DNA from: Nemertoderma westbladi
Taxonomy: Eukaryota > Animalia > Xenacoelomorpha
Length of the DNA: 41,775 nucleotides
Direction: 5' to 3'
Assembly: GCA_032718475.1 (NCBI GenBank)
Contig: JAUCBJ010007563.1
Coordinates: 1 to 41,775, forward strand
The notes under the pieces are model-generated. The model ran no database searches, was not told the DNA's origin, and saw nothing but the letters and a program-made list of their open reading frames with translations. Below, in pieces: positions 2,686 to 40,814 of this stretch. How positions within the stretch are numbered: the first letter of the stretch is position 1; each line of letters starts with the position of its first letter. Position numbers and translations under genes: made by a program.

Positions 2686-2689
2686 TATG

Positions 2690-7393: not shown

Positions 7394-7437
<44 letters not shown>

Positions 7438-16687: not shown

Positions 16688-17609
16688 TCAAGGCTTGGTG
16701 CATAAAATATAAAAAACTCCTCGGTTATCCAAAATTAAACAAATTAAGGTAATGCTATCGAAGAGTTCGGGTGTCATTTCCTTGGGTTCGGTTTGATCGT
16801 GGGATATCCAATAGAACGTTAGGCTCGTGAGCCTTCCACCGAACTCCTTGATCTCGCCTTTCTCGTACGCCTTGTATGCCATATATAGTCTAAGAGCTTC
16901 CCTCTTCCCCTGTGTCGACTTGTTGGACTCGTCTATTATCATACTGTAGACGTCCAGTTCGACTAGTTTGGGTTCGTATATCACGATCTCGCCCGCTTTC
17001 GGTACGCTCATCTTGAACGAGTGATACGGATTCTTCAAGGGGTATCCACCTTCCTGATAACACAGACTCTGGTGGTTTGGGCATCACACTAATATTGGTT
17101 CGGGGTTCTCGGGGTTCAATCACATAGGGATCGCGTTGTCTTGCGCACGCATACATCCTCCACATTTATAGAAGAGTTTATATATGGAGAACGCTTCCTT
17201 AGTCTCCTGGTCTGCTCATCGAGCGCGTCTATACAGGTGCATCCCGTCAAATTCGTCCCTAGCTGCAGGCATGGGCTCACCCGCCGTCTGATATTGCAGC
17301 ATGTGATATAATCGGCGTATCTCTGTATCGGGGTTCTCGCATATGTTGCTGGCGTCACACAATACATCGTAGGGGTATAACACGTTAAACTCCGTGCGTA
17401 ACTCCTCCATTCTCTTATTATAAGCGTTTTGTCGCTGTCACATAACATTTGGATCAGCCTTTGACTTTGCGAGCTTGGCTGTACTCCTTGCCATGCTCTC
17501 GACTCCGAACACGCTAAACTTCTTGGCCCCATATTGGTTGAACGGTGCCTGGTGCTCCTGTTCCTGCGTGAATCACTGTCGTTTGTTCTTTGTGGATCCT
17601 CTCTGCCAT
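16688..17609 (-). pseudogene. Orphan accessory ORF2 (~305 codons reconstructed; one frameshift, four TGA stops)
   Basis: One frame runs from ~17520 to 16688. Where the homolog at 32.6-32.9 kb covers the stops (two sites) it has CGA. Contains CGGC...CPNH. Confidence 0.7.
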
Positions 17610-17665
17610 TATAAGCGTATATATAGGTTACGTATCGTTACGTTTATCTATACCGTTGCATTCTA

Positions 17666-17691
17666 CTAGAGGAAGCACAAACAGAGGTTAG
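17666..17691 (-). promoter_or_regulatory. Predicted 3' splice acceptor upstream of ORF2
   Basis: Minus strand CTAAC-CTCTGTTTGTGCTTCCTC-TAG (branch point, pyrimidine tract, AG). Identical at 32921-32946. Confidence 0.65.
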
Positions 17692-17726
17692 ATATGAGGA
17701 AACTTAGAGTTTTGTCGGCTTTTGGC

Positions 17727-18392
17727 TCAACTTTGCTCTAAACCCCTACCCATTTGCCTAAGCTTTAGCTGGACATATCCTGCTGCTGACCTCTTCCATA
17801 CAGCTGGATCTCGAGTGTCCCTTACGATCCCCATTTGGTATAAGTCCTCCCAGGCAGCTTCCGATAAGTTAAACGGGAGTCCGGGTCCGGGGAAGTTCCA
17901 TTGCGTCTCTACAATAGACCTTAGTTCCTCCATCGTGTATCCCGCATAACTGTCCCTGGTCGATCTCTTATTTCTCATCCAATCAGCTTGATGTTCCTCC
18001 ACAGCGATCAATACTCTAGTGAGTACGGCCCCAGGAAGAATTAGAAGTGGATCTGGATAAACCGCTTCTGTCATCCTTGCTCCGATCTCGGGCATTAACT
18101 CTTCAGTGTCGGAACTACTAGAGTTATTCTGCCGTTGAGAAATAAGTTCTCGGCTCGGGTGCTGCTGCTGTTTAACTGCCGTCTCTTGGTCTCGCTTAAC
18201 TTGAGATCTAGTGCCTATAATAGACCTATGGTGCTTTATTAGTCTAGGGTCTGATACCACTACTGTAGGGATAACATTTCTTACAGTAGGAGGGGACTTG
18301 GACTTTGGTCTGAGATGTTCAATACTTTTATCTGGGTCACAGATCGTTCTTTCTAGGAGACTATCTGACAGTGTTTGCTTTGTGTCAGACAT
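17727..18392 (-). CDS. 221-aa ORF1 with a Gag-like N-terminus
   Basis: Open ATG-started frame. MSDT-x13-CDPDKS matches MSDT-x13-CDPDRS of the BEL Gag. Confidence 0.6.
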   Translation of the reverse strand: MSDTKQTLSDSLLERTICDPDKSIEHLRPKSKSPPTVRNVIPTVVVSDPRLIKHHRSIIGTRSQVKRDQETAVKQQQHPSRELISQRQNNSSSSDTEELMPEIGARMTEAVYPDPLLILPGAVLTRVLIAVEEHQADWMRNKRSTRDSYAGYTMEELRSIVETQWNFPGPGLPFNLSEAAWEDLYQMGIVRDTRDPAVWKRSAAGYVQLKLRQMGRGLEQS

Positions 18393-18968
18393 AACTTAAT
18401 TTACAGTTGAATGCCTACTACTATAATGACAGTTAAAGCAAGTCTAGAAGAATCAACTGTAAGCCTAGTAGTTATTTACCGATACCATTACTCAATGTAA
18501 CGTGATATATATATTTATTAAAATACCGGTATACACTTATAGTATATATATATAAGTATTATTTACAGACTAGGATCAGTCACAGAATACCGATATATAA
18601 GTTCAGCCTAAATTTATATAAATAAATATAATAAGCTTACCATAAATACCGGTAATGTCAATTATTTAATAATAACTGAATTTCTGGATTTTAGGGTTAC
18701 TTCCCTTTACTTTATTACTGATATTAAGCAGTAGTTCAACTGATATTAAGACCTAATTGATGTATGACAGGCCTACTATTTTATAAATCTGATTGAGTTG
18801 ATTTATAAATATATATACCCGTACAATGGGTTTTGACAATATTTTAAATAAATGTTATTATTTCTGTGTAAGGGGCCACTACACAGAAGCTGAACGCTCT
18901 CAGTGGAGTGCTACTTGCTAGACACTAATACAGATAATTTGACTTTACTAAGTTACTTATCACTACTG

Positions 18969-21601
18969 GGGTCAGGTCAGGTCAGGTCCCCAAATCCTGC
19001 TACCACTATGGCAGTAATGTGGTACTACCTGTAGCTGCCAGCCCAGTAGGGCAGGCCCGATAAGCATATCCTATTCATTATTTAGTTGATCAAGAGTGGG
19101 TTGGTTCAGCCCCGTCAACTAAATAAGTCATTGAGGGCTATAGCGCCTAGGGCACCATTGAAGGCAAAGGCTTGATACGCATCTGCATTAGAGATGATAC
19201 ACACCCCGCCCTGTCTATACTGGATGCTCCTCTACCAGTGTTAGGTAACCTAACCCAGGAGGCACACTTGGTTCAAGGTGTAACAAAAGGACCCCTACAG
19301 TCGGCAGCCGGGCTGTAGACCATGGATAGGCGGAAGGTAATCAACCAACAGCTAGACATGCTGACAAGGTCGGCGGAAGGTAATCAACCAATGGCGATCT
19401 ACTGCGAAGACGCTTGTAGGAGTTGCGACCACAAGCGGTTTACTCCCGCAACTGAAAGATATGAGTAAGAGAACCCTCCAGGAGAAATACCGGCTCGGTC
19501 GTCGCCCGGGTCAACAAGGACTCCCAGTGGACCCCAAGGACCCCCAGTGGTACACCAGGCTGGGGTCGATAAATTGGCTACTGGAACAAAAGACCGAGAA
19601 GAAAGAAGAACCAACCTGTTGAAATGTAAAAAGACACTAAAGATTACTACAATGAACGCACGCATGCTGAAAGCACATACCAAACAGGGTGACATGGTCG
19701 CTCTGGCAATGGAATATAACATCGATATCATCTGCATCCAAGAACATCGGATTTGTCATGAAGACACTGCCATGAAGTACAATGACATTGGAAATGGATG
19801 GACGTTAGTAACAAGCTCAGCAGTAAGAAACTCGGCCAATGCATCAATTGGTGGAGTAGGAATTCTGCTAAGCCCATTTGCACTTAAGACCCTAAACAAC
19901 ATCGAATCTATAAATTCCAGGGTTATGATCGCAACATTTGATGGGAATCCCAAGGCAACAGTTATATGTTGCTACAGTCCAACCAATGCCTCAGAGCCAG
20001 AACAAGCAGTCAAGTTTTATGAAGAACTGACTGGACTTATAAAGGACATTCCGAAACACAATGTTAAAGTCATTGCTGGTGACCTGAATGCCCAAATTGG
20101 CCCAGAAGACATCAAGGGTTACCCCTATAACACCAGTTCTAACAGAAATGGGTACTTACTTTTAGACCTAATGGAAGAATGTGAATTGATAACAACAAAC
20201 AACACATTCGAAAAGAGTAAGGGGAAGCTATGGACCTTTCAATACCCTAATGGAACCAAAGCACAACTGGATTACATCCTCATAAACAAAAAGTGGAGAA
20301 ACAGCATGATCAACTGCGAGGCATACAACTCGTTCAACCTAATTGGTTCGGACCACAGAATTGTGACTGCAGAGATCAGACTCAGTTTGAGAGCCAGCAA
20401 ACCCAGGACAAGCAAGCAAACTGACAATGCTGAAAAGGATGCTTATACAGTAGAAGTTCAAAACCGCTTTGAAGCACTTCAGTCAATGGATGAAGACCAA
20501 TCCACCAATTCAATATACCAGAATATAATAACAGCCCACAAGGAATCAGCTAAGAGGCATATCCCCCAGAAACCCAAACGAAAACAATATGTGCCATGGC
20601 AAAACTCTGAGGTTACTTGTAAGAGAGAAGATCTATCTTAAGATAGCCTACAAAGTTAAAACCGAACAACCAACAACCGAAAACATTAACAAGGTTGAGA
20701 AAGCTAAGGACGATCTTAAATTGGCCTACAACATCAGCCAGGAAAAGTACATACAGGATAAAACTGAAGCAATTACAACTGCTCACATACATGTGCACGT
20801 ACACGTTATGACTTTTGTGGACTTCAAGAAGGCATTCGACTCCATCCATAGAGGTAAAATGCTTGAAATCCTAAGAGCTTATGGAATACCAGAAGTAATT
20901 GTTGCTGGCACTGGATTGTTATATTGTGACACAGAATCGCAGGTACTCTCACCAGATGGTGAAACTGAGTTTTTCTCAATCCTGGCTGGCGTACTGCAAG
21001 GTGACACATTAGCACCATGACTATTTGTAATTGTGCTGGATTACGCAATGAGGACGGCCACAAAGGGTGAAGACCTGGGATTCACACTTCAAGAACGCAG
21101 AAGTAGTAGATATCCGGCAACTACAGTCACAGACACCGACTTTGCGGATGACATCGCCCTGCTCTCTAATACCCTAGCAGATGCACAGCTTCTACTAAAT
21201 AAAGTGGAGAGGGCTGTTAAGGAGGTTGGATTGCATATAAATGCTACAAAGACCGAATTCATGACCTTTAATGTTGATGGAAACTTGACAACCATTGATA
21301 ATAATCAACTAAGGAAGGTCGATGACTTCCAGTACCTTGGATCATGGATAGAGAGTAGCAAAAAGGACATAGAAGTTAGGAAAGCAAAGGCTTGGGTAGC
21401 TCTATCAAAATTGGATACCATCTGGAAATCAGATCTCTCCAGGCAGCTGAAGACTAAGTTCTTTCGAGCCACAGTGGAAAGTGTATTTTTATATGGGGGT
21501 GAGACCTGGACACTGACTAAATCACTTGAACAACGAATTGATGGTTGCTACACAAGACTACTAAGGGCAGCCCTAAACATCAGCTGGAGACAACACATGA
21601 C
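18969..21601 (+). mobile_element. RTE-clade LINE (family B): 5' UTR, APE endonuclease and RT; internally deleted near 20790, frameshifted, 3'-truncated
   Basis: APE motifs ICIQEHR, GGVG, YSPT, GDLNAQIG, QLDYIL and SDHR (19547-20641). RT motifs FVDFKKAFDS, GVLQGDTLAP, FADD and FQYLGS. Starts with (GTCAG)n. Confidence 0.92.
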
Positions 21602-22134
21602 ATTATTGAGGGGGTTTATGATTATTTATCGGTATTCTCCAAAAATAACATCAATATCCATTAATATAACAACAATTAATACCATAAGCAGAAGTAAATA
21701 GTGCAGTGATTCAGTAATATGCAGTCAGTTAATGACAAGTGTAAAATGAGTTGAATTGAATTGTTAATAGATTTACGTTCTCATAACCAAGGCCATCTGA
21801 TGTTGCTAGGCCAAAGTCTGAAACTTCCGCACAGAAGCACAGAAATTCTGAGTTGGTTCTGATGCTCAGAAAATAGTAAACAAAGACTGTAATGCATTGC
21901 GCGAGTTTCCATAGGTTTCTGTTAGACATAAAGTGAAAATTGCTCTGATTGGCTGAATAAGACAGAACAAAGAACTTCCACATCCACAAAGAATCAGCTG
22001 ACAGATTTCGTCATCTTGGTTGTAATTCCTTCCCGTCGCGTATTTGGATAAATTTAGGGCTATTTTAGAGTATTCTGCGCATTGCGTAAAAATGACTTGT
22101 TATGTCTGCAAAAGCTTTTACAGTACCATTAGCT

Positions 22135-22622
22135 AGAGAGTTAGTAAGAGGGTACGTGGTACCGTTAGTTAGAGAGTTAGTAGAGTTAGAGAGTTGGAGA
22201 GTTAGTAGAGGTAGAGAGTTAGTAGAAGTAGAGAGTCAGTAGAGTTATAGCGTTAGTAGAGGTAGAGAGTTAGTAGAAGTAGAGAGTTAGTAGAGTTAGA
22301 GAGTTAGTAGAAGTAGAGAGTCAGTAGAGTTAGAGAGTTAGTAGAGGTAGAGAGTTAGTAGAGTTAGTAGAAGTAGAGAGTTAGTAGAGTTAGAGAGTTA
22401 GTAGAGGTAGAGAGTTACTAGAGTTAGTAGAGGTAGAGAGTTAGTAGAGTTAGTAGAAGTAGAGAGTTAGTAGAGTTAGAGAGTTAGTAGAGGTAGAGAG
22501 TTACTAGAGTTAGTAGAGGTAGAGAGTCAGTAGAGTTAGAGAGTTAGAGAGTTAGAGAGTCAGTAGAGTTAGCAGAGTTAGGGAGTTAGTAGAGCTACTA
22601 GAGTTAGTAGAGTTAGCAGTAA
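22135..22622. repeat. Purine-rich minisatellite of AGAGTTAGT/AGAGGT variants
   Basis: Direct inspection. Confidence 0.9.
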
Positions 22623-24029
22623 GAGAGTAGAGAGCACAATATATCGTAGTAAGGTAGATAGGATAATAGCGCAGACAGGGGGAACATGGGTAGAATAAAA
22701 ATAAAATTAAGAATATCAGGATCACCTCCGAACTACAGAAGGTCCTTCTAGGTGGCCTTCGAAGGTCTGGTAGACCACCCAGGGCTGAAGGGCAAGTCGG
22801 TGTAATACAACAGCCGGCACTAGGCAGCCGGCCTAGTAGATAGGGAGGTGGATACACATATCAGAGGTGGGAGAAGTTGGAAGTGGATAGACTTGAGGAG
22901 AAGCGACTGGAAGAAGTCGCCAGGCGAGAAAGGCAGAGAGAGAATGAAACGCGTCATGTAGACGAGCATATAATATAATATATAATATATAATTATAATA
23001 ATTAATTGTTATATATAACTCATATATTATACAGTATGTACCGTAGTCAAGTACAACCTTTTCCAATTAGCTACTGGGACTAGGGACTAATTGACTAGAA
23101 TAGAAGGACGAGACTTAGACGGATCCCACTAACATGGTGCACACATGTGTGGGACCCGATAAGTGTGTGGTCATTCAACAACAGGGCGGAGTTCAGGATT
23201 TATTGTGAAAGCTCGTATCCTGCGGGATAAGAATCGTGCAGATGGGCAGTACCGGGATATGAGTAGGAGGGGCACTTGATGGGACCACAGGCGTGGAGAG
23301 TGAGGAGTATGAGAGGAGTATGAGAGGAATATGAGAAGAGTATGAGAGGAGAACGCAGGAAAGATAGAGAGAGGTGGTGTTGAGGCGTGTGGAGAGAGTA
23401 CGGGTGCGATTCAAATGTGGGGGGGGGGGGGGGGGGGGGGGTAAGAAGCAGAATGAGGGACGAAGAGGTCCGAGAGTAGAGAAGAGTTAGAGTGAAAGCG
23501 GATAGAAGTTAGAGAAGAGTTAGAGTGGAGTGGAGATAAAATTGTGTGAGAGAGGTCCACAATTGTCTCGAACCGAGACGCCAGATGTCTTGGTGCAACA
23601 CAGGTCAAAGTTGCACCAAGAGAGGGTAGTAATATCATACCCAGAGGGAGCGGCCTGGAAAGCCGACTCCAAGTAAGAGAACTCCACCCCACACCCGATA
23701 GTAGATCTGGTTCCAGCGAAATTGAAGCGCACTCGAAGGTGATGCTATCTTCTCACCGGGAAGATAACATGGGGGGGAGTGTGAGTGGATTCAATTCCGC
23801 CTCACTATCCCCATAAAGTTGGGAAGTGGCGCCTTTTTCAGCAATATTGGGGATACGAGATTAATCACAACTAATCTCGTATCATACCCAATAACGGGGA
23901 CAACACACAGCCCCAAAGAGCCTCACAAAGGGAGGTTAGAGGTCAAACCTCCTTGAGAGGGAAAGTAACAGCAGCGGGGGGGGGGGGGGGGGAAGCACTC
24001 CCACAGAGGTGGGAGCCGAGAATTAAGTT

Positions 24030-24364
24030 GTTAGCCAATGAGGGACGAGGGAGAGCATCCACTAGGTAATAAGGCGTAAGGGTGAATATATATTATCAGT
24101 TAATTACATTACCAGTCAGTTATCTCAGTCACTCAGTGGGGACCAGTTACATTTCGTACCATCACCGTAACTACCAGTACAACATATTATATTAGTCTGA
24201 ATACATTAATCCTTGTTCAACTGTGCTATCATATTTATATCAGTTATTTCATATTTGCGTTAACATATAACAATATCACAACGATAACGACAAACTATCT
24301 TCTTCTCAATTACACGGTGACACGTAACGTAATAAACCGGTCGGGATCCCCTGATCCCGTCACA
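24030..24364 (+). mobile_element. Possible 3' part of an LTR (CCAAT, TATA-like, TCAGT initiators, AATAAA, ...GTCACA)
   Basis: gccaat at ~24034, aatatata at ~24086, repeated tcagt at 24097-24137, aataaa at 24331, ends in CA. No 5' boundary was found. Confidence 0.3.
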
Positions 24365-24759
24365 GAGTCGTGTAAATTAATATGTATTAACTACAACTGT
24401 AGTATAGTCTTCTATGTTCCAAGTAACTAAACCTAAACCTAAATCCATACAGCTTTACTTACTGCGTTGGACCGTTGGTTGATACATATGAGTTGGATAC
24501 CCATCTGCATTGGGTATCACACAGCGTTGGATTTTCATCACCATCTGTTAAAATTTACACTTCTTACTTCACAAATTAATTAACACAAGCCTGCATTGAG
24601 GAAAGGGTACTGCTTTCAAGCAATCTCGTGAAAATAATTTAAACTTAATTACAAAAGAGCATAAAATTATTTAAAATATATTAAATATTAAAATTAAATG
24701 TAACTTTAAGTTTTTTAATTTAAAATTCTATTTAAGTAAACTACCTATCTATAGTTGTT

Positions 24760-25072
24760 ATGATGCATTCCAGCTGCAAGGCTAATTTTGTCAGGTTTTC
24801 AATAAAATTACGCCAATGTGTTTATCCGCATCTTCAAGGCCAGTGGTCCTTTAAGATGCGTCCCTAGGAAGACAAGGTCTTAGAACTCCTCTGTCCTATT
24901 TAGCCTGCTCGACCGCTTGCATTCCAGCATCTAATGTGTCCAGGATGTAACTGGCTGCCACACTGCGTGGGTGTAGTCCGCTAGACGTCTCCTTAACTCC
25001 TGATCTAGACACTGGCTGGTCCTCGCAGTGAAAGCCATATCCTGCGAAGCAGAAGCGGCTCCGTTTCAGTGT
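24760..25072 (-). mobile_element. Rearranged RTE 3' fragments
   Basis: 24822-24862 is the reverse complement of 3333-3372. The minus strand encodes RFCFAGYGF.CEDQPV. Confidence 0.7.
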
Positions 25073-25122
25073 TAAGTTCTGGGTACTAATGAATGAATGG
25101 GAGAATCTTTTAGGCTCGTTAA

Positions 25123-25520
25123 CCCTATTAGTACCGGTCTATAAAATGTTGTAAAAATACTATATTGAGATATGATATTAATTGATATAATTTTAATATT
25201 AAAATAATTTGCACACAGCACCGAAAAATACAAGTTAGATACGCTTAGTGCAACTCGGATATATTCTATCGAAACAAGAACCCCAAAAACCCCTATTGCG
25301 CCAGATATAGGTTCAACAATCAATTTACAACATTAACATACAGTATTTCAAAATTTGGTGCTGGAACCAAAATTTGGCACCTACTGAAAAAAAAGTTTGA
25401 AGCTTCTAAATTAATTTATATGAATTATATCTAATTGCAAACACCAAAAAACCTGTGAAATTAAAAATAGATGTGTTACCAATCATATGTCATGTTATTT
25501 AATTTTCAAAAAAAAAACGT
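25123..25520. mobile_element. Truncated second copy of the piggyBac-type element
   Basis: TTAA-CCCTATTAGTACCGG matches the 15456 end. 25205-25520 is the reverse complement of ~14110-14430. Confidence 0.8.
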
Positions 25521-25809
25521 ACAGTCCACATTCTAGACCTGACTCGAATAAATTGAATTTTCTTGACCTGATTTTGATCAACTTTGAAAAAATGTCTTCA
25601 AGTTGTCCAAATGACCAGTGGAAATGTGAAAAACATAACTCGATTGTCGAGTGTACTGTACGTACAGTACATTGCATGTCAATACTGTAGGTACAGTCAA
25701 GGCCTAGGTACAGCAGAACACAGTGTAGATCAGTATATTTTTTTTAGCTAGTTCGTATTTTTTCAATGTAACAATATTTTTTATTAATTAACAAGATTGT
25801 ATATATAAG

Positions 25810-26245
25810 AAAGGACAAACGAAGAGACAGCAGAAACGAATGGGGTGAACCCGACCCCGGAGCTGTGACACTCCTCGGCGTGGGCCACGATCTTACGCTC
25901 CCGGCCTCAGTGAGGGCATGTCCAGGTTTGCTGGGTGGTGGGGACAGGAAGAGCGGAGGTTGATATCCTCTCGGATTCCTCTGCAGATGTGGACAGGGAG
26001 GTTAGGCCAGGATCTAGGTGTGGGTTGGCTGGTTGGTGGCCAAGGATGAGGGAAACCAGGGGTCCAGCCTGGCAAACGGAGTCTACATATGCAGCTGGTG
26101 CATGGTCAGTTGCCTTGTGCAGGCCTAGACCCCCCATAGCGGTTGGAAGGCATGCCTTGTTGTATGACCAGTTGGAGAGCGAACCTCCGACCAGGTCAGA
26201 CAAGGAGTCACGCATGATGAGGTCGAATTCCAAGGAATACCAGAG
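25810..26245 (-). pseudogene. CRE-clade non-LTR retrotransposon fragment (post-RT region)
   Basis: FD..MR.SL..LVG......KACLPTAMGGLGL......PAAYVDS. Confidence 0.65.
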
Positions 26246-26985: not shown

Positions 26986-27546
26986 GGGTGACTACAAAAC
27001 AAAGACCAACGACCCAAATAATAAAGACCTGTACAAATACAAAACACATGTGTTAACTTTCGTTTATTGTTTTGGTTCCCTAACACGCCTCTGTAACCTG
27101 CTTCTTTACTAACCTGCTCCTTTAAATGGAAATGTGACCTCACGCTCTCTGGCAATGGGACCTAAAGCTCTTTGGAACCTAACGCTCTTTGGGACGTAAC
27201 GCGACTTTACCTCTTTGTTTTGTACAGGTCACAATGAGCGTTATGTACTATTTATTTTATTTTTATTTATTTATTTACACCAAACCGATGGTTCATATCA
27301 GTGTACAGTACATAATAATAGCACAAATATTAAATATAGTATAACTAACAGACTATAAGATAAACTATACGGTAGAAAGTAACTATAGTAGAATGAAAAA
27401 TATCACTATTGCTATTTAAAGGAGCAGGTTAGTAAAGGAGCAAGTTACAGAGGCGTAACGGGGTATTCAAAACAATTAACGAAAGTTAACACATGTAACA
27501 AGATTATGCAGGTCTTTATAATTGGGTCTTTGTTTTGTAGTCACCC
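26986..27546. mobile_element. Mutator-like MITE with ~140-bp TIRs and a 9-bp TSD
   Basis: GGGTGACTACAAAACAAAGACC... / ...GGTCTTTGTTTTGTAGTCACCC. CGCAGTGTC is duplicated at 26977-26985 and 27547-27555. Confidence 0.85.
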
Positions 27547-27604
27547 CGCAGTGTCCGCGAATTATACATTGTAAAAAAATATTTAAATAAATTTAAAAAT
27601 ATTA

Positions 27605-27910
27605 TTGAAATTAATTTCCGAAATTAACATCCCGAAATTAATTTATGGACGTCCATTAATTAGTTATTTCAATACGATTCTGATTGGTTGATAGATTAAT
27701 TTCGGGACGTCCATAAATTAATTTCGGGACGTCCATAAATTAATTTCGGGACGTCCATAAGTTAAATTCGGGACGTCCATAAGTTAATTTCGGGACGTCC
27801 ATATAGTTAATTTCGGGACGTCCATAAATTAATTTCGGGACGTCCATAAATTAATTTCGGGACGTCCATAAGTTAATTTCGGGACGTCCATAAATTAATT
27901 TCGGGACGTT
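27605..27910. repeat. 22-bp tandem array (TAATTTCGGGACGTCCATAAAT) x~10 with inverted copies at 27605-27658
   Basis: Direct inspection. Confidence 0.9.
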
Positions 27911-29300: not shown

Positions 29301-31707
29301 ATTTTGGCGCTGAGGTAGAGTTCTGAGGTAGAGTTCTCTCTACCTTTAGGTAGAGAGAAAGGCTCCAGTGTAGTAATGGCTGGGCTCGCCACTGTAGTAA
29401 ACATGCCTGTAAGAGTGAAGTGTGAGGCGCCCTAACTTATTATTTTCTACATATTTTTTACTAATCTAATAATTAACACCCCTTTACCTGTCACCTAGGT
29501 TATAAGCAGTGTGCTAGCACTTGCAGCGTAATAATTAATTATTTACTTTAATTTTATTCGATTGGTAATAAAAATAACAAGTTCAAATATTTAATTTGTA
29601 AAAATTCTTTAAAATATGAGAAAAGTACTTTACATATTTTTCTTTATTTAGCTGTGTAAGGGTCCAGTAGTATACCGCTTACCAGATCCTAGTAACGATA
29701 TATCTTACTATGAGACTCTAGTAATGTATACGGGCTCGTACAGTATCTGACAACAAATCCCAGTCCAGGATATCTAAACAAACAGATACAATACACAAAC
29801 GACTACTGGCGAGGAACAGAGCCTAGTATCTATTCTATGTACGTGAGCGGGTCTAATGCCTACTGTACGTACTAGACAAAAGGATACCTGTCCTCTAACC
29901 GGTGAGGCAGATGTACAGTTACAGTAACAGACCAAACTCACGGGAAAACAATCCCCGCGCAGCGAATCCTAACTATCACTGACAGTCCTAAATACAGTAA
30001 CTTGCCGCGGTGTGATTTATATGGTTTATATACGAACTAGGTGGTTAACAGACCTAGTGTAACAATGCTGATTACCCCTGTCTAAATCAGCCTAAAAGTC
30101 GTGCCTAAATGTAACGATAACTGATCCCCCTGTACGAAATCAGTCTAAAGGGTCAAGCCTAAATGTAACAATACTGCTGGACAGAAAACAACAGTTTGAT
30201 AACGAAAGTGAAATGCTCTCTCTTGCCGCAACTAAATATCAGATCCTAATTTTACAAATACAGATAATTTCTACCTAAAATAATGTATAGTGCGCTATAG
30301 CTAGTAGAACTCTAAGGGCAATATGTTTTAGGGCGTGTGTGTGTGGGTGTGTTACAAAATAAAACAATTTCGTGTAATTCCTTTACTAGGTTTTAGTGAT
30401 TTTCTGACCGAAATGATACCGTGCGCTAGCTACTAAAATAAACTAGTCGCGTTTTGTAGAACTTTATACTCACAAATGACGTCAAAGCTCTCTCCTTCCT
30501 ATCCACAACCCAATGGGCAACCACAGTGTTAGTAACTACACCCGTGATCGGCACTAATACCAGATTCTGGTTGTAAGATAAGAAATAGGGGTTAATCGCT
30601 ACCGTACGTTAGCTGATCTGGTATACTAATTTAATTCTAGAACTTTGTTGCTGCGGTAGTTAGCAGCAATACCTATCAGTACGTGGCAAGGCGCGGTAGG
30701 ATATTAATAAACCTCCCTAGGCCAAGCAGTGTGCCGGTAGCAGAAATACTCCTTGCCTGATCAAATAGCTAACTCCAGACAGGGGGGGGGGGGGGGGGTA
30801 CTAATGTACGTTCTACAAAGCGAACCGGTACCAAACAGTCAATACTACGAATCACTAAATTATGGAACATATGCTGTCCGTACCTAATATGTACTCGCGT
30901 ACTGACGAATGGCAATAGTTCGCACCTGTAGGAAGTACAGGTTAACCCAGGGGTTCGTAGGACTGACAAAGGGGGGGGTGTTTCTGTCTGAATATAATTA
31001 TTTGATCCTAAATTTGCGGCGTCCAGGACGGCGTCACGCTTACCCTGATCTATAGGTCTTACGGCGGGCAAGGGCGTCGAACAAAGTCTTACCTTCTCAC
31101 AAAGCGGGCGCTGCATGGCAAGTGGAGTATTTCGAAGGGCAAAGGGGGTGCGCGGTCAATCCAATGTGGGCGCTAGCGTGTTGTGGACATCTTTTCCCTG
31201 CGTTGCTGACGGCCTAACGGTCTAGGCTGCCATCTTCCCGATGTTTGGCTGTCCCAAGATTGGACCAAAAGAAAACATGTTCAGGAATTTGCAGTATATT
31301 TACAGTTTTAACAAAGGATTTATCAAACGAAGTTTCAACAAGAAACCAAATAAACTAAATAACAATTTAACTAATACTAATCTGGGATAAGTTGATAACC
31401 GAAGGCAAACCGGCCTTTTTATACTAAATATCGCACATGGAAACTAAACAGAATTTTCCACAGCTTCACATTTGAGCAATAAAGTGCTTTGTGCCCTATG
31501 ATTGGCCCAGCTCATCGTTCAACGCAATCCGGCCCTTACACTAATCTGGGACATGGAATCCTAACAGAATTTTCCACTGCCTCACATTTGAGCAATAAGA
31601 TCATTTATGCCCTATGATTGGCCTGGCTCATCATTCGCTATGTTGTACGCTTCTCATTGGTCCACCAATTAGCACCAAACGAAAATAAATGGCCCCAAAA
31701 TACAAAT

Positions 31708-31780
31708 TTCCCGACCGGGATTCGAACTCGTAACCTATCTGTAATGTAACCAACGCCTTAACCATCTGACCACTACGCCA
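31708..31780 (-). ncRNA. tRNA-derived Pol III-type unit (not a functional tRNA), copy 2
   Basis: TGGCGTAGTGGTCAGATGGTTAAGGCG...GAGTTCGAATCCCGGTCGGGAA followed by TTTGTATTTT. Confidence 0.65.
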
Positions 31781-32555
31781 CGAGAGTACCTAAGGGTTTT
31801 ATGTGTACAAATATGAATAGGCATATTACATTACTGTAACTTAATCAAAATGCGTCGGATTTTCGAAAGTTTTTACGTTAAAGTTAAACTACAAATGCTA
31901 CCTTATAGTGAAATAATTCATCACCGCTCCATGAAAACAGTAAGTAAGACTGTTTTCACCAATCGAAATATAAAATATTTACAAACTACTTCTAAATCTA
32001 CTGGTAGGGCCTAAAATATAAAATATAATCACTATCTAATTATTGCATACTTAATATTGCAGATACGGCGTAAATACAATCGATCGTACATACAAATACA
32101 AATTTACTAATTAACTTTAGTGCCTAAAATACAAAAAGGGCTTTCGGTTATCAAGGTAAGCAAATTAAACAAATCAGAACAAATAAATCAAAACAAATCG
32201 AACAAATAATTGTAACTCTTTCGATAAATCTTTATATATTGTAAATATACATAATAAATTCACCAAATTAAATCAGTCCAAATATAAAATAAACATAATG
32301 TGCTAAAATCCTTTCAAATAAGTCTTAAAGAGTCCTCCTGACGATCTGAAAAGTTCGTCCTGCTGGTCTGGATATCTTCTCCTGAGCACTAATTGCTAAC
32401 GGTAGGCTCGCAAGCCTTCCTTTCCATATCTCGCTCTTCCTTCATCTCGCTCTCCTAATCCTTAGTCGAACGGCTCGTCCACGTCCTCTAATACGATTGG
32501 GTGGTGGTCGGGATCGAACTGGACTCGGGCTTCGGTGTCGAGCTGTCGGTGGTTC

Positions 32556-32920
32556 CTACGTCGAGTTGCCTGCGGTTCTAGAATACCGGGAAATGAAATG
32601 ACCGCCTTCTTGGTAACGCAGACTTTGGTGGTATGAGCATCGCGCTAATATCGGCTCGGGGTTCTCGCAAACGTCGCTGGCGTCGCATAACGCATCGTAG
32701 GGGTACAACGCTTTGAACTCCGCGTGTAACTCCTCCGCTCTTTTGTTATAAGCGTCCAATCGCTGTCGCGTGATGTTTGGATCCGCCTTGGACTTAGCGA
32801 GCTTGGCTGTACTCCTAGCCATACTCTCCACTTCAAACACGTTAAAGTTTTGGCCCCATATCAGTTGAACGGCGCCTGGTGCTCCTATTCCTGCGTGGAT
32901 CCCTGATAATAGTGTTTCTA
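32556..32920 (-). pseudogene. Internally deleted homolog of orphan ORF2
   Basis: MARSTAKLAKSKADPN...YNKR.EEL..EF..LYPYD.LCDAS..CENP is shared with 17330-17520. Confidence 0.7.
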
Positions 32921-33610
32921 CTAGAGGAAGCACAAACAGAGGTTAGATGTGAGGAGACTTATTTTGTCGGCTTTTGGCTCAACTTTGCTCTAAACCCCTA
33001 CCCATTTGCCTAATGATTTCGGGTTCACGTGATTTCGCACTGGCTCCTAATCCAAAAAATGTGCCGATAAAAAACGAATTCCGGGTAAACTAGCCGTGAG
33101 TCTAAAATACTCACCTTTTAATTTCCCACGCTACACTTCCCAAGAAAAATAGTGCAGTCGAGAATTAATTGGTCTAAATAATAGTAGACACGACTACGTA
33201 GAACAAGGCCGATTTTCTTTTTCCAAAAAAAATTTATCGGTAGGCTCGCAAGCCTTCCATCCGCTCTTGTCCTCCCCAATTTTAATTTTTATCTAGCTGT
33301 ATTCTAGAATTTGCTTTCACTGGAGAATCGTTTTTCTTAAATTTAAATCCAAATAAATGGATTTGTCTAATAAATTTTGAAAAATGTCTCACTTGTGGGT
33401 TCCAAGTGGAATTCCATTCCTACTGTACACACAATCCCGCTCCTATGTGATACATAAGGGTACTACCCTCCATGTTCACGCATAAAGACAATGGAATTCC
33501 ACCGCTGTCTCTATCTACAGTGAAGAGGATTACAAATGCACGTACAGTAATACAAATACAAATAACTAAAATACAGTAGGTCTATGTGGCGGCCAACCAA
33601 GGTCCCACAT

Positions 33611-36264
33611 CTATTTACTAATATTGGGTGGAGATTTGTAGTCTCCCGTCTCGTTTCTAGTCTCCTCAAGGAGTACGAGACGTTGTACAGGCCTATCTAC
33701 GGTACGTCCGTCGATAGTCCTTACAGTAACTGTCCTCACTACACCAGATGTAGGGTGTGTGGTCAAAATGACTCCAGTCAGCCAAAACCGTCTTTTCAGA
33801 TTAGCTTCAGCCAATAAAACATGGTCACCACGTCTTAGACATCGGGTATTTAGATACCAAGAGGTTCTGGTCGAAATAGAGGGCAAATAATATTTCTGCC
33901 ATATTTCCCAGAATTTATTTGCAAGCAATTGAGTGATTTTCCAAGCCTTGTTGCCGTATCCGTCACTATCAACGGGTACCGAAATGGGCAACAATGTCGT
34001 CGGCGCCTGCATAAGCAGGTGCGCTGGTGTCAAGGCAAACTGTACGTCGTTATTGTCTGGGAACAAAGCGATCGGTCTAGTGTGATTGCTTCGATTTCTA
34101 TTAGTAACGTCGTCAGTTGGTCGTCTGTCAAGATGTGTTGCGTCGGTACTACTTTAGCCATAGCTGTCTTTATTGAGCCAATCAGCCTTTCCCAAACGCC
34201 GCCTCTCCACGGACTGTCTGGAGTATTGAAATACCAAACAATACGGTGAGGACGTAGTTCCTCGGAAATCTGGTTTTGGTCCAATTTTCTCAAAGCTCTG
34301 GTTATTTCGTTCCGTGCACCCACAAAGTTTGTCCCTTGGTCGCAGTATATGGATTTGACCAATCCACGTCTTGCGATAAATCGCCGTAAGGCTAGGATAA
34401 AGGCATTGGTGGTCAAGTCTGTCACTCGCTCTATATGGACAGCTCTGCTGGCCATGCAAGTGAAGATCAATCCCCAACGTTTTACCTGTACCCTTCCGCG
34501 TTTCACGATTATGGGTCCAAAACAGTCTATCCCTGTCTCAGTGAAAGGGGGTCTAAACGCCTGTAATCTAGCTAGTGGTAGTTCACTCATTTCTTGGTGT
34601 CCTATCCTCGCATGCACCTTCTTACAAATAATACAGTTCCGTGTTACCGAACTCAGTGCCTTACTAGGTCTAATCAGTACAAACCTCGAGCGTAAGTGTG
34701 ATAGACAGTGGTGTCTACCTACGTGTTTGAGTTGTACATGTGCGTCCAGTATCATAGCGCGCTGTAATTCATGGTGTTGCGGTATGATGATAGGATACCT
34801 AAAATCAAGTGCAAAGTCGATGTTTTGGAGTCTGGACTTGTGACAAAGTAAGCCCCGGTAAATAATCGGACTCCAACTCAAAATCGGTGAAGACTTAATC
34901 TGTTTACCTTGTTTGATCGCTGTGAACTCTCGTGCGAAATATCGCAATTGATAATGTCGAATGATATCAACTTCACAGTGGCCAATTTCCTTTAAGGTAA
35001 GTCTTCTAGGAAAGTCGCGTTTGCCTCTGGCATATTGTCTCAATCGTTTGAGCCATGCTAACTTGCGGCACGCGTCAGTCCATGATCTAGTTAGGTTCAC
35101 TATCCTGTCAACGTAAGTGTTAGTGACGTCATCAGGTAAGGTGTAATCGTAGTGTGGATACTTGTCTGGACTTGGTAGGCCTACGGGCCTTCCGGTAGGT
35201 TTGTCTGAGTCCCCAAGTACGTCAATCTCTACGGTCTTACCTTTACCGTCCGCACCTAATGTGTCGACTGGCAGTAATGGTTTCAACTCTACAGTGTCAG
35301 TGTGTTCCTGTGAGCCTGTAAGCTTCCTAACCTTAGTCACACGTTTACCTGTAGGTAAGTCAAGTACCTTCTTCGAGCGGAGTGTAATCCCTGTGGCCAC
35401 ACCTTTGTCGTCCAAAGAAGTCAAATTTGGTAAGTCTCTAAAGGTCCGCTCCAATGGGTCTTCTAATGGAGTGTCTAGTAGACAGTCTGGTGAAGCGTCT
35501 GGTGAACAGTCTGGTGAGACGTCTGGTGAGACATAGCGCGGAACATCCGACGAAATATCCTGTCGTCGGTCCCAAAGTCTGTCTAGCGTAACTTCTGTCA
35601 GAAAGTCTGGTTCAAAGTCTGGTCTAAAGTCTGGTGGACAGTCTGTCGAGATGTCTGGTGGAAAGTCTGGTGAGACGTCCGGTAGACATTCTGTCGAGAG
35701 TTCCATCAAACAATCTGGCGAACAATCCGGAGAACAATCTGGTGTCTCTTCTGGTGAATAGTCTGGCGAGTAATCTGGTGAACAATCCGGCGAAACGTCT
35801 GGTGAAATCTCCCGCGGAACATCCGGCGAAGGATTCATACAAGCGTCTGGTCGAGTGTCTGGCGAGACATCTGGCGTAATGTCAGGTCTGGCGTCCAGGT
35901 CATCAGATTTCGTCCGTCCTTTTTTCCTCTTGACCTTGGCGTTGGCTTTCGCTTTAGACTTGACAACCTTGTCGAGTTTTATCTCGGCATCCTCTGGTAT
36001 GGTGTTGGTTGTCGCGTCGAATAACGGTGGCCATTCGTCTGATGGTCGCTGTAGGAAATCGGGTCCTCTAAACCAAAAGGATTTATTGTCCGGTTTACAA
36101 AAGTCAAGCGGTTGCATCCCCCGTGACGCGGTGTCAGCTGGGTTCAGCTTCCCTGGACAGTGACGCCAATCTTGTTTGAGCGACCGGTCTAATATTTCAG
36201 CCCGTCTGTTGGCTACGAAAGTCTTGAACTCAAATGCTTCGTTGTTTATGTACCAAAGTACCAA
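33611..36264 (-). pseudogene. pol: BEL pol C-terminal part: RH end, long linker, integrase (frameshift near 34050) and DUF5641-like tail
   Basis: FVANR..EI, W.H.PG..NPAD.ASRG, H..LKH...C..C, PFTETGIDCFGP, FTCMASRAVHIE, LRRFIARRG...CDQGTNF, PWRGGVWERL, LTPAHLL...FW..W...YL. Confidence 0.92.
35480..35890 (-). repeat. In-frame 12-bp repeat array encoding (S/P/T)PD(V/C/Y/F) tetrapeptides
   Basis: gtctggtgaaca-like units, visible in the translated ORF. Confidence 0.9.
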
Positions 36265-36272
36265 CGTCGCCT

Positions 36273-36542
36273 TTAAGTTAGCTTAGTCGTGACCTTTAAG
36301 TTAGCCTCCAGCTCGCGTTGAACTAGACTGACAATATCGGTGGATATCGTCCCGGCTTGCAGCTCCCCACGAGGTACAGTCATATACTTCAATGGCATCG
36401 TTCTAGCCCTTGAATTAACGAGAGATACATCGTAGCTGTCCGATGTCACTTGTCGTCTAAGGTATAAAGTAACCCCCAATCCATCCTTGCTAGCGTCACT
36501 AAAGCTGTGAAGCTCTAAATCGGCAGGAAAGGTGGTTTGCAA
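36273..36542 (-). pseudogene. pol: BEL RNase H (Pao peptidase A17 region)
   Basis: ELHSFSDAS...YLR...SRAR..PL...TVPR.EL. Confidence 0.9.
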
Positions 36543-36548
36543 AGGAAA

Positions 36549-38120
36549 TTATACCCTCGGTATGGTATAATCTTGTAGGAACGTCAGTTGGGCTTCCCAG
36601 TCCCTCCATCGCTCAGCTAACTTTTCTGGGATGGGATCGTCCCATTCCAGTCCGGCTTGCCAAATGCTGCGGAGTATGATCCTGGCATGTAGGATCACTG
36701 GACTAATGAAACACAATGGGTCATACAATCGACTCATGGTCGATAAGCAAGTCCTCTTAGTGAGAGGTCTAGTCTGGTCGTTGGACCTTACACGTACCCT
36801 AAAATTGTCGGTGTTAGGGTCCCAACTAAGTCCTAATACTTTGGTCGTCGGCAGAGGTTCTAGGTCTAAGTCCAAGTCACCTCCACTGCGATCCATCGGG
36901 TCAAATGAGTTCACCAGTTCGGGTTCGTTGGAAGCGAACTTCGTCAGGTGAAATCCGCCCTCAGCGAGACAATCCTGGAGTTGGTGTGCTACGGTAGTAG
37001 CGCGCTCCAAGGTGTCACAACTCTTGAGGCCGTCATCCACGTAGAAATCTCGTTCCACAGTCCGAACTACTTCTGGGTCAAATTGGTCTCGTCTGTCCAA
37101 TGCTGTCTGCTTTAAGGCGTACATGGTGCAGTTGGGGCTGTCCCTGGCTCCGAAAACTCTTACCTGCATTTGGTAAGTTTCTGGCGGAAGTTGTAAGTTT
37201 CCGTCCGGATACCAAAGAAACCTCAAGCTGTCCCTGTCCCGCTCCAAAGCCTTAACCTGGTGAAACATGGCCTCTACGTCACAGGTGAAAGCCACTTTGC
37301 ATTGTCTAAAACGCATTAGGACTCCCATGAGGTAATTATTCATATTCGGCCCGTCCATCAGTTCGCTGTTCATAGACATCCCTTGGTAAAGCGCAGCGCA
37401 GTCGTTGACTACACGCACCTTGCCAGGTTTGTTCGGGTGTCGAACAAAATGATGTGGCAGGTAATATGTCTGGTCTGTGGTTACCTCGGGATTTAACATC
37501 CTAATGGCGTATCCCTTTTGGAGATACGTCTGAAGTTGTGCATTGTATTGCATATGGGCCATCTCGTCTCGCAACAATCGCTGCCTTATTGATTTGAGTC
37601 GCCTCAAAGCAAGCGGGTAATTGTTAACGAGCTTTGGTTGTCCATTGCGCCACAACATACCAACCTCATAGTGGCCATTCGCGGTCTGGCGAATGGTATC
37701 TCTCATAATATTTAATGACCGTTTTTCCTGTTCTGACATAGCGGTCTCGTAACTACCGGGTTCTGCTGAGTCCTGTTCCAACCATTGTATGGTCCGTTCA
37801 GTCAGCAGTCGGTCAAGCGCTGCTTGCACTGCGCCATGGTCCTCGTACACGTCTTCGTCCGCTGCGGTGGCTAGTGTCAAGGTGTCTGGTAGGCTCGCAA
37901 GCCTTCCGGTGTCACTAGTCGGCGTCGAATCGTCGTGCGGCGGTTTGACAACTTCTTGATCTATCGGTAGGCTCGCAAGCCTTCCAAGATCAACGACCGG
38001 TGTCGAGGCCTGGTGGGTGGGGTCAATGACCTTCGGATTTTTCGGTAGGCTCGCAAGCCTTCCAAAATCCTCGTTCATCGAGTCATCCACGGCAACAACC
38101 CTTTGGTCTTCGGTAGTCAA
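36549..38120 (-). pseudogene. pol: BEL reverse transcriptase region
   Basis: YYLPHH.V..P.K..KVRVV.D, GP, L.RFR, DVEAMFHQV, LRFLW, FG..SP, FYVDD, TKR..LS..YDPL. Confidence 0.95.
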
Positions 38121-38225
38121 TACAACCTGGTCTACTGCAAGTAGTTGTAAGTCAGAGGTCCGTATGGTCGTGTCCAGATCGGTTACGTCAGTATCGGTGG
38201 CGTCTGCGTTAGTGACGCAAGTCTG

Positions 38226-39056
38226 TCATAGTGCCGTCCGTACAATTGGACCACAGGAGTGTGAAGGAGAATTATCTATCGTGTTAGTCAATAAACTACA
38301 CGTACTCAAAACGTCGTCCTCCTGGTCACTTACCTCTAGTGAACGTATTGGTGCTCTAGTATACCAACCTATGGGAGTTCTACATGCGTAGGGGTTGCCC
38401 GCTGTAATAACAGATGGGCGTGTCTCCCATACCTGATGTAAGTTAAACTGGTCTGTCCCAATTAACATCGCAATAGAACGATAATTAACAGGACATTCCG
38501 GTATTCCAAGGTGTCGGAAATACTTACGATCTTCCGTTGATTGTCGCAGTGTCCGAGTGGATACGGCGCCTGAACTGCTTACACAACAGTGTTTGGTGGT
38601 GCAGGTTCGAATCCGACTAAAGACTGTAGAAATTTCGCACTGTTGTGTCCCTAGGCAAGACACTTTAGACATTAGTGCCTACGTCAACCCAGCGGTATAA
38701 TGGGAACCTGGCTTTGCTGGGGTAATGATAATAAAAGCGCTTTGAGTATGCTGAGCGTAGAAAAGCGCTATATAAATAACCAATATTATTATTATTATTA
38801 TTATTATTATTATGATTGCTCTGGCACAGGGCCGAGCAAGTTACTAAAGTCCTTCGTAGCTGCAAAGGTCAAATTTCTTACCGGAAGTAATGAGCGCTCC
38901 TCCTTGCTGTGTTCCGCTTTGGAAAGAAGAGTGTCTAAAGTTAATTTTACTCTTGTCACAGGGATCGCTCTCTTACCATGCATGCTGCTTACAGTATACT
39001 GAGCAGTCTTACCTTGACTCATGTCCGTAACTACGTCGGCTACTTGTTCGTCGACA
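38226..39056 (-). pseudogene. Disrupted BEL protease region
   Basis: MLIGTD...PYACRTPIGW is the typical end of the BEL protease region. Interrupted by the insertion at 38671-38813. Confidence 0.65.
38671..38813 (+). mobile_element. 5'-truncated L2-type LINE/SINE 3' tail
   Basis: AAAGCGCTTTGAG...GAAAAGCGCTATATAAAT...(ATT)n is the conserved L2 3' stem-loop and microsatellite tail. Confidence 0.8.
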
Positions 39057-40814
39057 TCACAGGTTTAACGTGTTCGACGTCACAGGATTAACTTGCAATG
39101 GTTTACTCACCTGTTTCACTGTCATAAACGCAGGTTCGTCTCTCTCCACAAGTAAACTACAACTTACTGTAGGTGGACTAGTTATGTTACCTGCTAAAAT
39201 TGGCGATGAAGTCGCCCTAGGTTGCGGTATTTCCGTCACAACAAACCTGCTACCTTGCGTCGGGCGCACAGGCGTTATTTCCTTAGGTTTCGTAACAAAG
39301 ACCGGTTTTATCGGAGTCGTGGGTTTGAGCATAGGAATAACTTGGGGAAAACGTTTACAGTAATCCTCGACGAACTCCTCTCCTCGATCTATCGCTCCCA
39401 CACTTCCTTCCTCGATTCGCTTCTGGATTCCGCGATATCGAGTCTCCATGCGATCCGGGGCAGACAAGTCGTGTCCAGTTCGAGACCTTATAGATCTATC
39501 TCTCGCGTCGAGTTCGAGGTCCGCTTGCGCGTTCGTTGCCTCGCGCGATCTACGATTCAGTTCGAACTGGAGCTGCATCTCTCTTTCGCGTCGATCTGCT
39601 TCCTGTTGTTGTGCCGCTAACTCCGCTTCCTGTATCGCTAAACGAGCGTTTATTTGTCGCGCCTCCAACTTGGCACGAGCGTCGGATGCTGCTTTTTTCC
39701 GTGCTAACTCAGCTGCGTTTACCGCCGCAACTCGTGCTAACTCGTCGGCTGCCGCCGCTGCCTGTCGTGCTAGCTCGTCAGCTGCTGCCACCGCGGCCGC
39801 TTCTCGCGCTAAGTCCTCCTCCAGTCTCCGCATCTCTGATGCTTCGAACTCAGCCTGTGCTTGAAGTTTCGCAAGTTTCGCTACATCCTCTCTGCGCTGT
39901 TTTTCTCCTTCGATGGCGATCTGTGCCATCTGTAGTTGCGCTTCTTCCTCGGCGACTTGTTGTCGGCGTGCGACCTCCTGTTGTTGTCGAATAATTACAG
40001 ACGCTGTTCTACTAACGTCGCCAACGTCGCTCCGTACACTAATGAACGATCTATCCAGTGGTGGAATTTGGTAGGCTCGCGAGCCTTCCGTAGATAGAAC
40101 TTCCGTCGTCTCTCTCGGTACAACTTCCGGTTCTTCGATCGGTACTCCGCATCTATGAAGAAAATTGGTGAGCGTCTCCAACCTCCCGTCCAGGCAGTAG
40201 AGTTCTTCTTCCTCTTCGGGTTGTAACAACGCGTCCGAAACTGACTCACCTAGCAGTTGGTCGAACTGCTCCTGTTGAGCCAATCTTATCACCGACTTAA
40301 ACTGGATAAGGCTTTCTCTCGCACTTACTAATTTATCTATTATCTTTACCTGAGTAAAGTTGTCGCCACGCAACTCTGCAAGTTCGTGTAAACCTTTAAG
40401 TTTATCTACGGAAGCATGTACCCTACTTTCTATCCTTACCTGTAAGGTGTAGAACTCGTATCTCGACATCGGGGCGGTTAACTCGCGTAAAACGCGAAAA
40501 CCTTCTCCGAAGTTTCGAGTAATCTGGGCCATGTGTCCTCCTATACTCCTAATAACGTTCTCCTGGCTTCCAGTCAAACTTACCATGTCCGGTTCCCGCG
40601 ATCTAGTCTGCGGGACGGTAAGGAAATCTTCGATTCTGCCGTCGCCACGCGTTGCGGCTTCCGGTATTTCCGTTCGGGGTACCGGCGACGCAAGCGGTGT
40701 GACATCTGTGGAATCTCGGGTTCTCCTTCTCGGTTCGTCTACTGTCGATCTGTCCGGGTCGCACGAGTCATAGTCGGTAGATGGGTATCTCGTCGAATGG
40801 GGTGTGTCACTCAT
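39057..40814 (-). CDS. gag: Gag N-terminal/coiled-coil ORF (585 aa) of the BEL element; capsid and zinc knuckles not seen
   Basis: Long ATG-started ORF upstream of pol with an E/A/R-rich coiled coil. Confidence 0.75.
   Translation of the reverse strand: MSDTPHSTRYPSTDYDSCDPDRSTVDEPRRRTRDSTDVTPLASPVPRTEIPEAATRGDGRIEDFLTVPQTRSREPDMVSLTGSQENVIRSIGGHMAQITRNFGEGFRVLRELTAPMSRYEFYTLQVRIESRVHASVDKLKGLHELAELRGDNFTQVKIIDKLVSARESLIQFKSVIRLAQQEQFDQLLGESVSDALLQPEEEEELYCLDGRLETLTNFLHRCGVPIEEPEVVPRETTEVLSTEGSRAYQIPPLDRSFISVRSDVGDVSRTASVIIRQQQEVARRQQVAEEEAQLQMAQIAIEGEKQRREDVAKLAKLQAQAEFEASEMRRLEEDLAREAAAVAAADELARQAAAAADELARVAAVNAAELARKKAASDARAKLEARQINARLAIQEAELAAQQQEADRREREMQLQFELNRRSREATNAQADLELDARDRSIRSRTGHDLSAPDRMETRYRGIQKRIEEGSVGAIDRGEEFVEDYCKRFPQVIPMLKPTTPIKPVFVTKPKEITPVRPTQGSRFVVTEIPQPRATSSPILAGNITSPPTVSCSLLVERDEPAFMTVKQVSKPLQVNPVTSNTLNL

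Follow-up and report, generated by a model that had tools for sequence, protein, structure and literature searches.

A 20-nt near-palindrome repeated in a BEL/Pao retrotransposon of Nemertoderma westbladi and its pol-less relative: a putative multi-copy cis signal

What keeps a 20-nt near-palindrome almost unchanged at eight places in two related retrotransposons? The question arises from a 41,775-nt stretch of the Nemertoderma westbladi genome (GenBank assembly GCA_032718475.1, contig JAUCBJ010007563.1, positions 1 to 41,775), which we refer to as the window. Its minus strand carries a transposon that is, judged by its coding content, a BEL/Pao long terminal repeat (LTR) retrotransposon (the main element), as well as a relative of that element with no pol. 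Seven copies of the motif lie in the main element and one in the relative. We present evidence that the motif is kept at the nucleotide level. We conclude from the sequence that the signal is genuine: it acts in cis, is present in several copies, is specific to the family and is strongly conserved, and its mode of action is putative.

Copies of the motif and constraint on its letters

A preliminary description of the locus had placed eight copies in it, all in one orientation, and all eight were confirmed far beyond chance. Five exact copies and two variants (40070 and 16818) were found at no more than 3 mismatches (mean in shuffles 0.00), and the copy at 35174 was recovered by a loop-free pattern (shuffles: mean 0.12, largest 2). 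No degenerate or reversed copies were missed, because a scan of both strands to 6 mismatches of 20 added to the 8 sites only one unrelated 6-mismatch match, at a chance mean of 1.25. When the letters of the stem were left free, requiring only Watson-Crick pairing, the A.A mismatch and a loop of 4 nt, 7 sites matched on the sense strand and 0 on the other. Within the window, the 28,786 bases outside the two elements contain 0 copies; a host-wide palindromic repeat inserted in genes (REP/RPE-like) would have copies beyond the element. The shared orientation itself is weak evidence, because copies made within one RNA retain their orientation. The main-element copies are scattered over 7.7 kb; the window includes roughly 1.7 kb of the 5' part of the element, and no copy was found there. 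Three of the copies make up one 78-nt array, so that the independent sites number no more than 6. Nothing in Rfam matched the motif sites. Searches of viral and metagenome contigs with a degenerate pattern gave 68 and 2 single matches, respectively, which we attribute to chance because all 70 loci lack both a further site and any resemblance to the element; the viral contigs yielded no BEL DNA, phage gave no match and prokaryote genomes gave two short matches.

The three array copies provide an internal comparison: the motif is invariant in 20/20 columns versus 9/58 in the rest of the 78-nt unit, and at third codon positions the figures are 6/6 and 2/20. We also looked at polymorphism within the family, using Logan contigs of 4 public runs (at most 3 samples) on positions 37830-38120 with a variant cut-off of 2%. 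Thirty positions varied at 2% or more. In the motif 1 of 60 positions was variable. In the flank the figure was 29 of 158 when counting was limited to the span bounded by the outermost variants (p=4e-4) and 29 of 231 when the full stretch was counted (p=0.006), although other copies add depth over the motif and so dilute its variants below the cut-off up to about twofold. The difference was seen at third positions (0/18 in the motif, 12/55 in the flank) and at CpG positions (1/9 and 12/30). In diverged contigs, some of which may be placed on this stretch because they contain the motif, the matching pieces are the size of the motif and are separated or bordered by other letters. Constraint ends sharply at the motif edges, and the 25-nt flanks are mostly at background identity. 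The motif is thus under strong constraint within the family.

The level at which selection acts can be judged from the coding copies. Could selection be for the peptide GRLASLP, which might for instance be cut by a protease? Five of the 6 coding copies are read in the GRLASLP frame, three of them in the linker between protease and reverse transcriptase (RT), but the synonymous positions are invariant (6/6 in the array; 0/18 variable in the family), two exact copies lie outside long open reading frames (ORFs), one copy is in another frame and the copy at 35174 changes three residues. We regard selection on the peptide as very improbable and largely excluded. Rather, the sequence evidence indicates that selection is on the nucleic acid, because third positions are invariant, the frame of one copy differs, two copies fall outside long ORFs and, at 35174, the peptide is altered and the stem retained. 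The synonymous-site check that had been proposed for the coding copies therefore came out in favor of constraint, all third codon positions of the motif being invariant. The preliminary description had also located copies in gag, pol, ORF2 and non-coding DNA and had stressed their use in different reading frames; the peptides read as it gave them, but "gag" is so by position only, the ORF showing no homology to a capsid or a zinc knuckle, and five of the six coding copies share a frame, the exception being the one at 40070.

It is also conceivable that the motif has no function and is a self-copying palindrome, spread by template switching in reverse transcription and homogenised by conversion. 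Three copies do have a few extra 3' bases in common (a 28-nt repeat family), all copies have the same orientation and contigs joining motif to motif exist. However, constraint stops at the motif edges, variant copies differ in the loop and not in the arms, and conversion would need to outpace mutation about tenfold; template-switch repair, moreover, would be expected to erase the A.A mismatch. We consider such a neutral history quite improbable.

Hairpin or plain sequence

The predicted fold consists of 2 base pairs, an A.A mismatch, 5 pairs and a 4-nt loop (-7.6 kcal/mol), and within 200 nt of sense context the stem is predicted to fold in 5 of 7 copies. In agreement with the preliminary description, differences among copies fall mostly in the loop (6/12, compared with 1/42 in the outer arms; p=2e-4), with 2/6 at the closing pair, both from a double change at 35174. 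The two mismatched A's, described there as fixed, are invariant in 8/8 copies with one polarity and are never corrected to a perfect palindrome. At 16818 one outer pair of the stem is broken; the A.A mismatch is kept. We suggest that this broken pair reflects decay of that copy, because in two contigs of run X3 letters like those of the relative adjoin 22 nt that match the form at 40070. The last six letters of the motif also stand ahead of the 35174 copy and so give rise to a second, overlapping hairpin at 35180-35199, which competes with the fold of the motif.

A rather unlikely alternative is that the motif works as double-stranded DNA, integrated or unintegrated, in which a host or ORF2 protein would recognise a pair of GGWAGGCY half-sites; it could then serve, for example, as an enhancer, insulator or anti-silencing site. 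This would agree with arms that are invariant and free of wobble-type substitutions, with a loop and loop CpG that are invariant in the array, with folding that is strand-symmetric and with the regular 78-nt spacing, which would suit a DNA-binding array. It agrees less well with the A/T asymmetry, which has the same polarity in 8/8 copies and leaves no perfect dyad, or with a closing pair that changes on both sides together. The bases just outside the stem are also of interest here. They are T.G in 4 copies, C.A in 3 and A.G in 1, hence mostly T.G or C.A and never Watson-Crick (p=0.03 before allowing for relatedness), and could represent either a wobble position or single CpG decays of an ancestral C-G pair. 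U.G and C.A pairs are similar in shape. The kept mismatch polarity and the non-Watson-Crick flanks hint at a single-stranded hairpin in preference to a DNA dyad. The motif fits poorly with p53, BANP, REP and UNCG motifs.

Another possibility, which we hold to be improbable, is that one 20-mer anneals to another to form an extended RNA duplex, giving many dimer-linkage or long-range contacts along the genome. The major form can self-pair fully on the sense strand by way of G.U wobbles (-30.7 kcal/mol, versus -22.9 kcal/mol antisense), and the CGCG form reaches -34.9 kcal/mol. There is precedent in Ty1, which dimerises through the palindromes PAL1 and PAL2 (PMC8396678). Nevertheless, full sense self-pairing is available to 6 of the 8 copies; the sense-strand loops at 35174 and 16818 do not complement themselves (-22.0 and -21.5 kcal/mol, weaker than antisense), and a pure duplex role leaves the kept A.A mismatch unexplained.

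Placement, candidate mechanism and known systems

Four pol copies are located inside two insertions that are specific to this family. Relative to homologs, the protease-RT linker is longer by a median of 158 residues (26/141 homologs with both anchors aligned) and the linker between RNase H and integrase by a median of 272 residues (98/141 measurable). No peptide encodable by the motif in any frame occurs in the 141 homolog proteins, and the 142-aa array region had 0 matches among 1.84 billion representatives; for these two reasons the motif looks private to this BEL/Pao family. The RNase H-integrase insertion is filled by a 12-nt tandem repeat of SPDV/SPDC-like units at 35450-35900.

Two splice donors of the form AG|GTAAGT are predicted to precede ORF1; a predicted acceptor, made up of a branch point, a pyrimidine tract and an AG, lies ahead of ORF2. 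Six of the 7 main-element copies lie between predicted donor and acceptor; the splice sites are consensus matches only, and the main element has five further donor-like sites.

We tentatively favor the possibility, which we see as plausible rather than probable, that the motif is a multi-copy protein-landing stem-loop marking full-length RNA for packaging. This model builds on the observed constraint and placement, uses predictions for folding and splicing, and takes the binding partner and the step served from analogy. According to it, the motif would be a small stem-loop on the sense RNA that is bound at several sites by a protein, probably the element's own Gag, and the landing of Gag would select full-length RNA for packaging. 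The predicted intron would strip 6 of the 7 copies from the ORF2 message. Copies may be born by short duplications during reverse transcription, extra copies may persist owing to the gain in avidity that additional binding sites would bring, the protein may recognise the pairs that surround the mismatch, and the copy in the relative may help a pol-less element to borrow the machinery. A bolder form of the model, which we regard as doubtful, is that the motif is a private, near-invariant 20-nt RNA operator housed in purpose-grown linkers and read by an element protein, with hairpin number separating full-length from spliced RNA and letting the relative co-package; this would amount to a natural MS2-like tag-and-coat pair.

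There is precedent for dispersed stem-loops acting as packaging signals in single-stranded RNA viruses (MS2 TR-like; PMC6281560), and the alphavirus packaging signal, which lies in a coding region, consists of repeated GGG stem-loops (PMC6283419). As in these viruses, many small stem-loops with a common feature would be present in genomic coding RNA here, and several stem-loops are predicted on the genomic strand (7 sense versus 0 on the other). The viral signals differ in that they vary around a sparse loop motif or, in alphaviruses, cluster in about 400 nt, whereas our putative signal, a 20-mer that hardly varies and whose stem is invariant, is dispersed over 7.7 kb of a retrotransposon. The Ty1 palindromes and Psi, which are tied to dimerisation and packaging, resemble the motif as short palindromes in the RNA of an LTR retrotransposon (PMC8396678). 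They are, however, confined to the first 580 nt, while the motif copies are dispersed and none was found in the roughly 1.7 kb of 5' part within the window.

Apart from the dilution of variants noted above, several observations weigh against packaging through a folded hairpin: (i) predicted hairpin stability is equal on both strands (-7.6 kcal/mol); (ii) in 200-nt context the predicted stem is absent at 37888 and partial at 35174, and in 80-nt context it is absent at 33239; (iii) the double change at 35174, which the preliminary description took as compensatory, is present, but covariation is non-significant, the change being matched in 142/500 shuffles, with 4 distinct sequences available; (iv) 5 of the 7 stem pairs never vary, and thus the earlier claim of selection on a nucleic-acid structure stands for the nucleic acid and is not supported for structure over sequence; (v) in the three array copies the loop, too, is invariant across the family, which fits a site read as sequence; (vi) two copies, the one at 32401 and the sole copy in the relative, come after the predicted acceptor and would thus be on spliced RNA too; (vii) the relative has one visible copy and it is damaged; (viii) the window copy of the element has no recognisable capsid or nucleocapsid/zinc-knuckle region; and (ix) packaging signals described elsewhere are built on sparse motifs (PMC6281560) or lie near the 5' end (Ty1, PMC8396678), and ours is a near-invariant 20-mer.

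The same sense stem-loop might instead be read by a host protein and serve nuclear export, germ-cell localisation or translation of the intron-retaining RNA, much like a miniature CTE/PTE or zip code in many copies. We think this unlikely. With regard to export, the intron position of 6 of the 7 copies is as expected, and there are known parallels. The RRE, CTE, murine leukemia virus (MLV) PTE and CAE, MusD MTE and SPRE are all, like the motif in our reading, cis RNA signals on intron-retaining RNA, and some overlap pro-pol coding sequence, as the MLV PTE does (PMC4588558). The 17-nt SPRE, common to 378 repeat families of which 96% are endogenous retroviruses (PMC8579622), resembles the motif in being short and fixed, and the main element likewise has a predicted spliced downstream ORF. 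On the other hand, the export elements described are single large structures, one folded domain of about 400-1400 nt, or a motif concentrated at the 3' end, and what we see is seven dispersed, near-identical predicted hairpins, each a 20-nt unit with unrelated flanks. With regard to localisation, the I factor commandeers a transport protein by means of a stem-loop within its coding region (PMC13186709), a likeness in position to the motif. The I factor is a non-LTR element, however, and its stem is longer, bent, U-A-rich and bulged and has no fixed sequence; signals bound by Egl need such a long bent stem, with 3'-strand bulges and U-A pairs, and the motif is a short GC-rich stem of 7 pairs with a symmetric mismatch. 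A conserved host reader might also serve other BEL families, yet the motif-encodable peptide is missing from all 141 homologs.

The preliminary description knew of no distributed signal of this kind in BEL/Pao elements, and our searches of the open literature likewise found no description of a repeated hairpin or a cis-acting RNA signal in BEL/Pao; the motif strings and GRLASLP were absent from the open literature searched. In the main text of a BEL/Pao study (PMC3118150) the words "hairpin", "stem-loop" and "packaging" never occur, and a scan of its supplements other than the element nucleotide file gave no match to the motif. Dispersed packaging hairpins are thus already known from single-stranded RNA viruses; what appears to be new is a repeated near-invariant 20-mer in a BEL/Pao family.

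Even in the case of Ty1, little is understood of the way in which an LTR retrotransposon selects its own RNA (PMC8396678). A discrete, repeated and strongly conserved 20-mer makes this question directly testable with short oligonucleotides. If an element protein were found to bind the motif specifically, the logic of multi-site packaging would extend to animal retrotransposons, and motif and binder together would make a new orthogonal RNA tag.

Anatomy of the main element and its relative

The assignment of the main element is based on the order of its pol domains. A Pfam search found PF05380, PF00078, PF17921 and PF18701 in this order, and the order protease-RT-RNase H-integrase with Pao-type domains is that of BEL/Pao. 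The element was collinear with homolog polyproteins in 10 of 10 tested, and it has 141 protein relatives with identity of at most 49%, all listed ones being BEL/Pao. It resembles BEL/Pao elements as described (PMC3118150) in domain order and Pfam signature and departs from them in its large family-specific linker insertions, in a spliced-type ORF2 without homologs and in the repeated motif. Coordinates are collected in Table 1.

Table 1. Motif copies and other features of the main element and its relative in the window
Feature	Positions	Strand	Remarks
Motif copy 1	40070..40089	-	loop CGCG; in ORF1, second reading frame, EGSRAY
Motif copy 2	38044..38063	-	exact; first of 78-nt array, expanded protease-RT linker, GRLASLP
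Motif copy 3	37966..37985	-	exact; array
Motif copy 4	37888..37907	-	exact; array
Motif copy 5	35174..35193	-	C-G closing pair and different loop; GRPVGLP; 3' edge of expanded RNase H-integrase linker
Motif copy 6	33239..33258	-	exact; non-coding, between pol end and predicted splice acceptor
Motif copy 7	32401..32420	-	exact; downstream of ORF2 remnant, outside any long ORF
Motif copy 8	16818..16837	-	GRLTSL, in the downstream ORF of the relative; an outer stem pair is broken
Two predicted splice donors, AG|GTAAGT	40884..40986	-	in 102-nt duplication upstream of ORF1; consensus match
ORF1, 586 aa	39057..40817	-	gag by position; alanine/charge-rich
Pol segment: expanded linker, RT, start of Peptidase_A17 (Pao RNase H region)	36549..38225	-	PF05380 4e-18; PF00078 0.005
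Pol segment: RNase H end, Pro/Asp-rich insertion, integrase	34030..36282	-	Pfam and homolog alignment
Pol C-terminal DUF5641 segment	33611..34153	-	PF18701 3e-19; here in a frame of its own
Predicted branch point, pyrimidine tract and AG before ORF2	32921..32946	-	identical 26-mer in relative, within 101-nt block 95% identical
ORF2 remnant of main element	32556..32942	-	no homolog found
3' terminal region of main element	31393..32103	-	common to relative (73%); probably part of 3' LTR (LTR status inferred)
Relative's ORF1, 222 aa	17727..18395	-	at most weak N-terminal likeness to main ORF1 (9/23, E=0.13)
Relative's predicted splice acceptor	17666..17691	-	26-mer identical to main element's
Relative's ORF2 region	16688..17637	-	broken by stops and frame changes; 83% identical to main element where aligned
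Relative's 3' terminal region	12363..12955	-	LINE-type and other insertions between it and relative's ORF2

The 5' part of the element is probably incomplete in this copy. ORF1 had no Pfam match, no zinc knuckle and no similarity to the BEL capsid region; neither a zinc knuckle nor a D-x-G protease active-site motif was found in the three sense frames of the main element, and nothing in it aligned to homolog residues before about 760 in the 10 polyproteins tested. The missing capsid/protease part of this copy is probably a deletion, because a contig of run X5 continues past 39079. Between ORF1 and the protease remnant, at about 38550-38830, lies an insert with a TAT tail, presumably SINE-like (SINE, short interspersed nuclear element), that shows raised depth and loose ends in run X5. 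The main element extends to the window edge, and the 3' region shared by both elements has no 5' counterpart within the window. With regard to ORF2, database and structure-atlas searches gave no homolog and no Atlas match, and its structure model has a pLDDT of 39. We considered an Arg-rich stretch 3' of ORF2 as a Rev-like motif and rejected it, as it lies past the stop codon and in a frame made uncertain by a probable deletion.

The relative spans about 18400-12363. Its likeness to the main element is strongest in the 101-nt acceptor block (95%) and lower in the aligned parts of ORF2 (83%) and the 3' region (73%). About 216 nt at 17112-17327, between two short direct repeats, are present in the relative and missing from the main element; other genomic copies run on with relative-like letters at this junction.

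The 3' region shared by the two elements has several features of its own. A CCAAT-containing block (31393-31636 and 12363-12494), doubled in the main element, is followed by a TATA-like word, and homology between the elements stops about 30 nt beyond that word. Both elements also have a tRNA-like stretch on the minus strand with Pol III A- and B-box-like words (31712-31786 and 12556-12636); ARAGORN at default settings made no call at either, and at relaxed settings (28 calls in all) only the main element's copy was called.

Elsewhere in the window, remnants of RT or endonuclease of the LINE (long interspersed nuclear element) type occur at 13243-16724 and 19469-21701. One of them interrupts the relative and is itself split by a repeat of 163-nt units that recurs inverted at 25203-25513. 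Minisatellites with 17-nt and 22-nt units and several inverted-repeat pairs like those of miniature inverted-repeat transposable elements are also present (22167-22634, 27691-27909, 403-2887, 2626-3494, 7126-7565 and 26986-27546).

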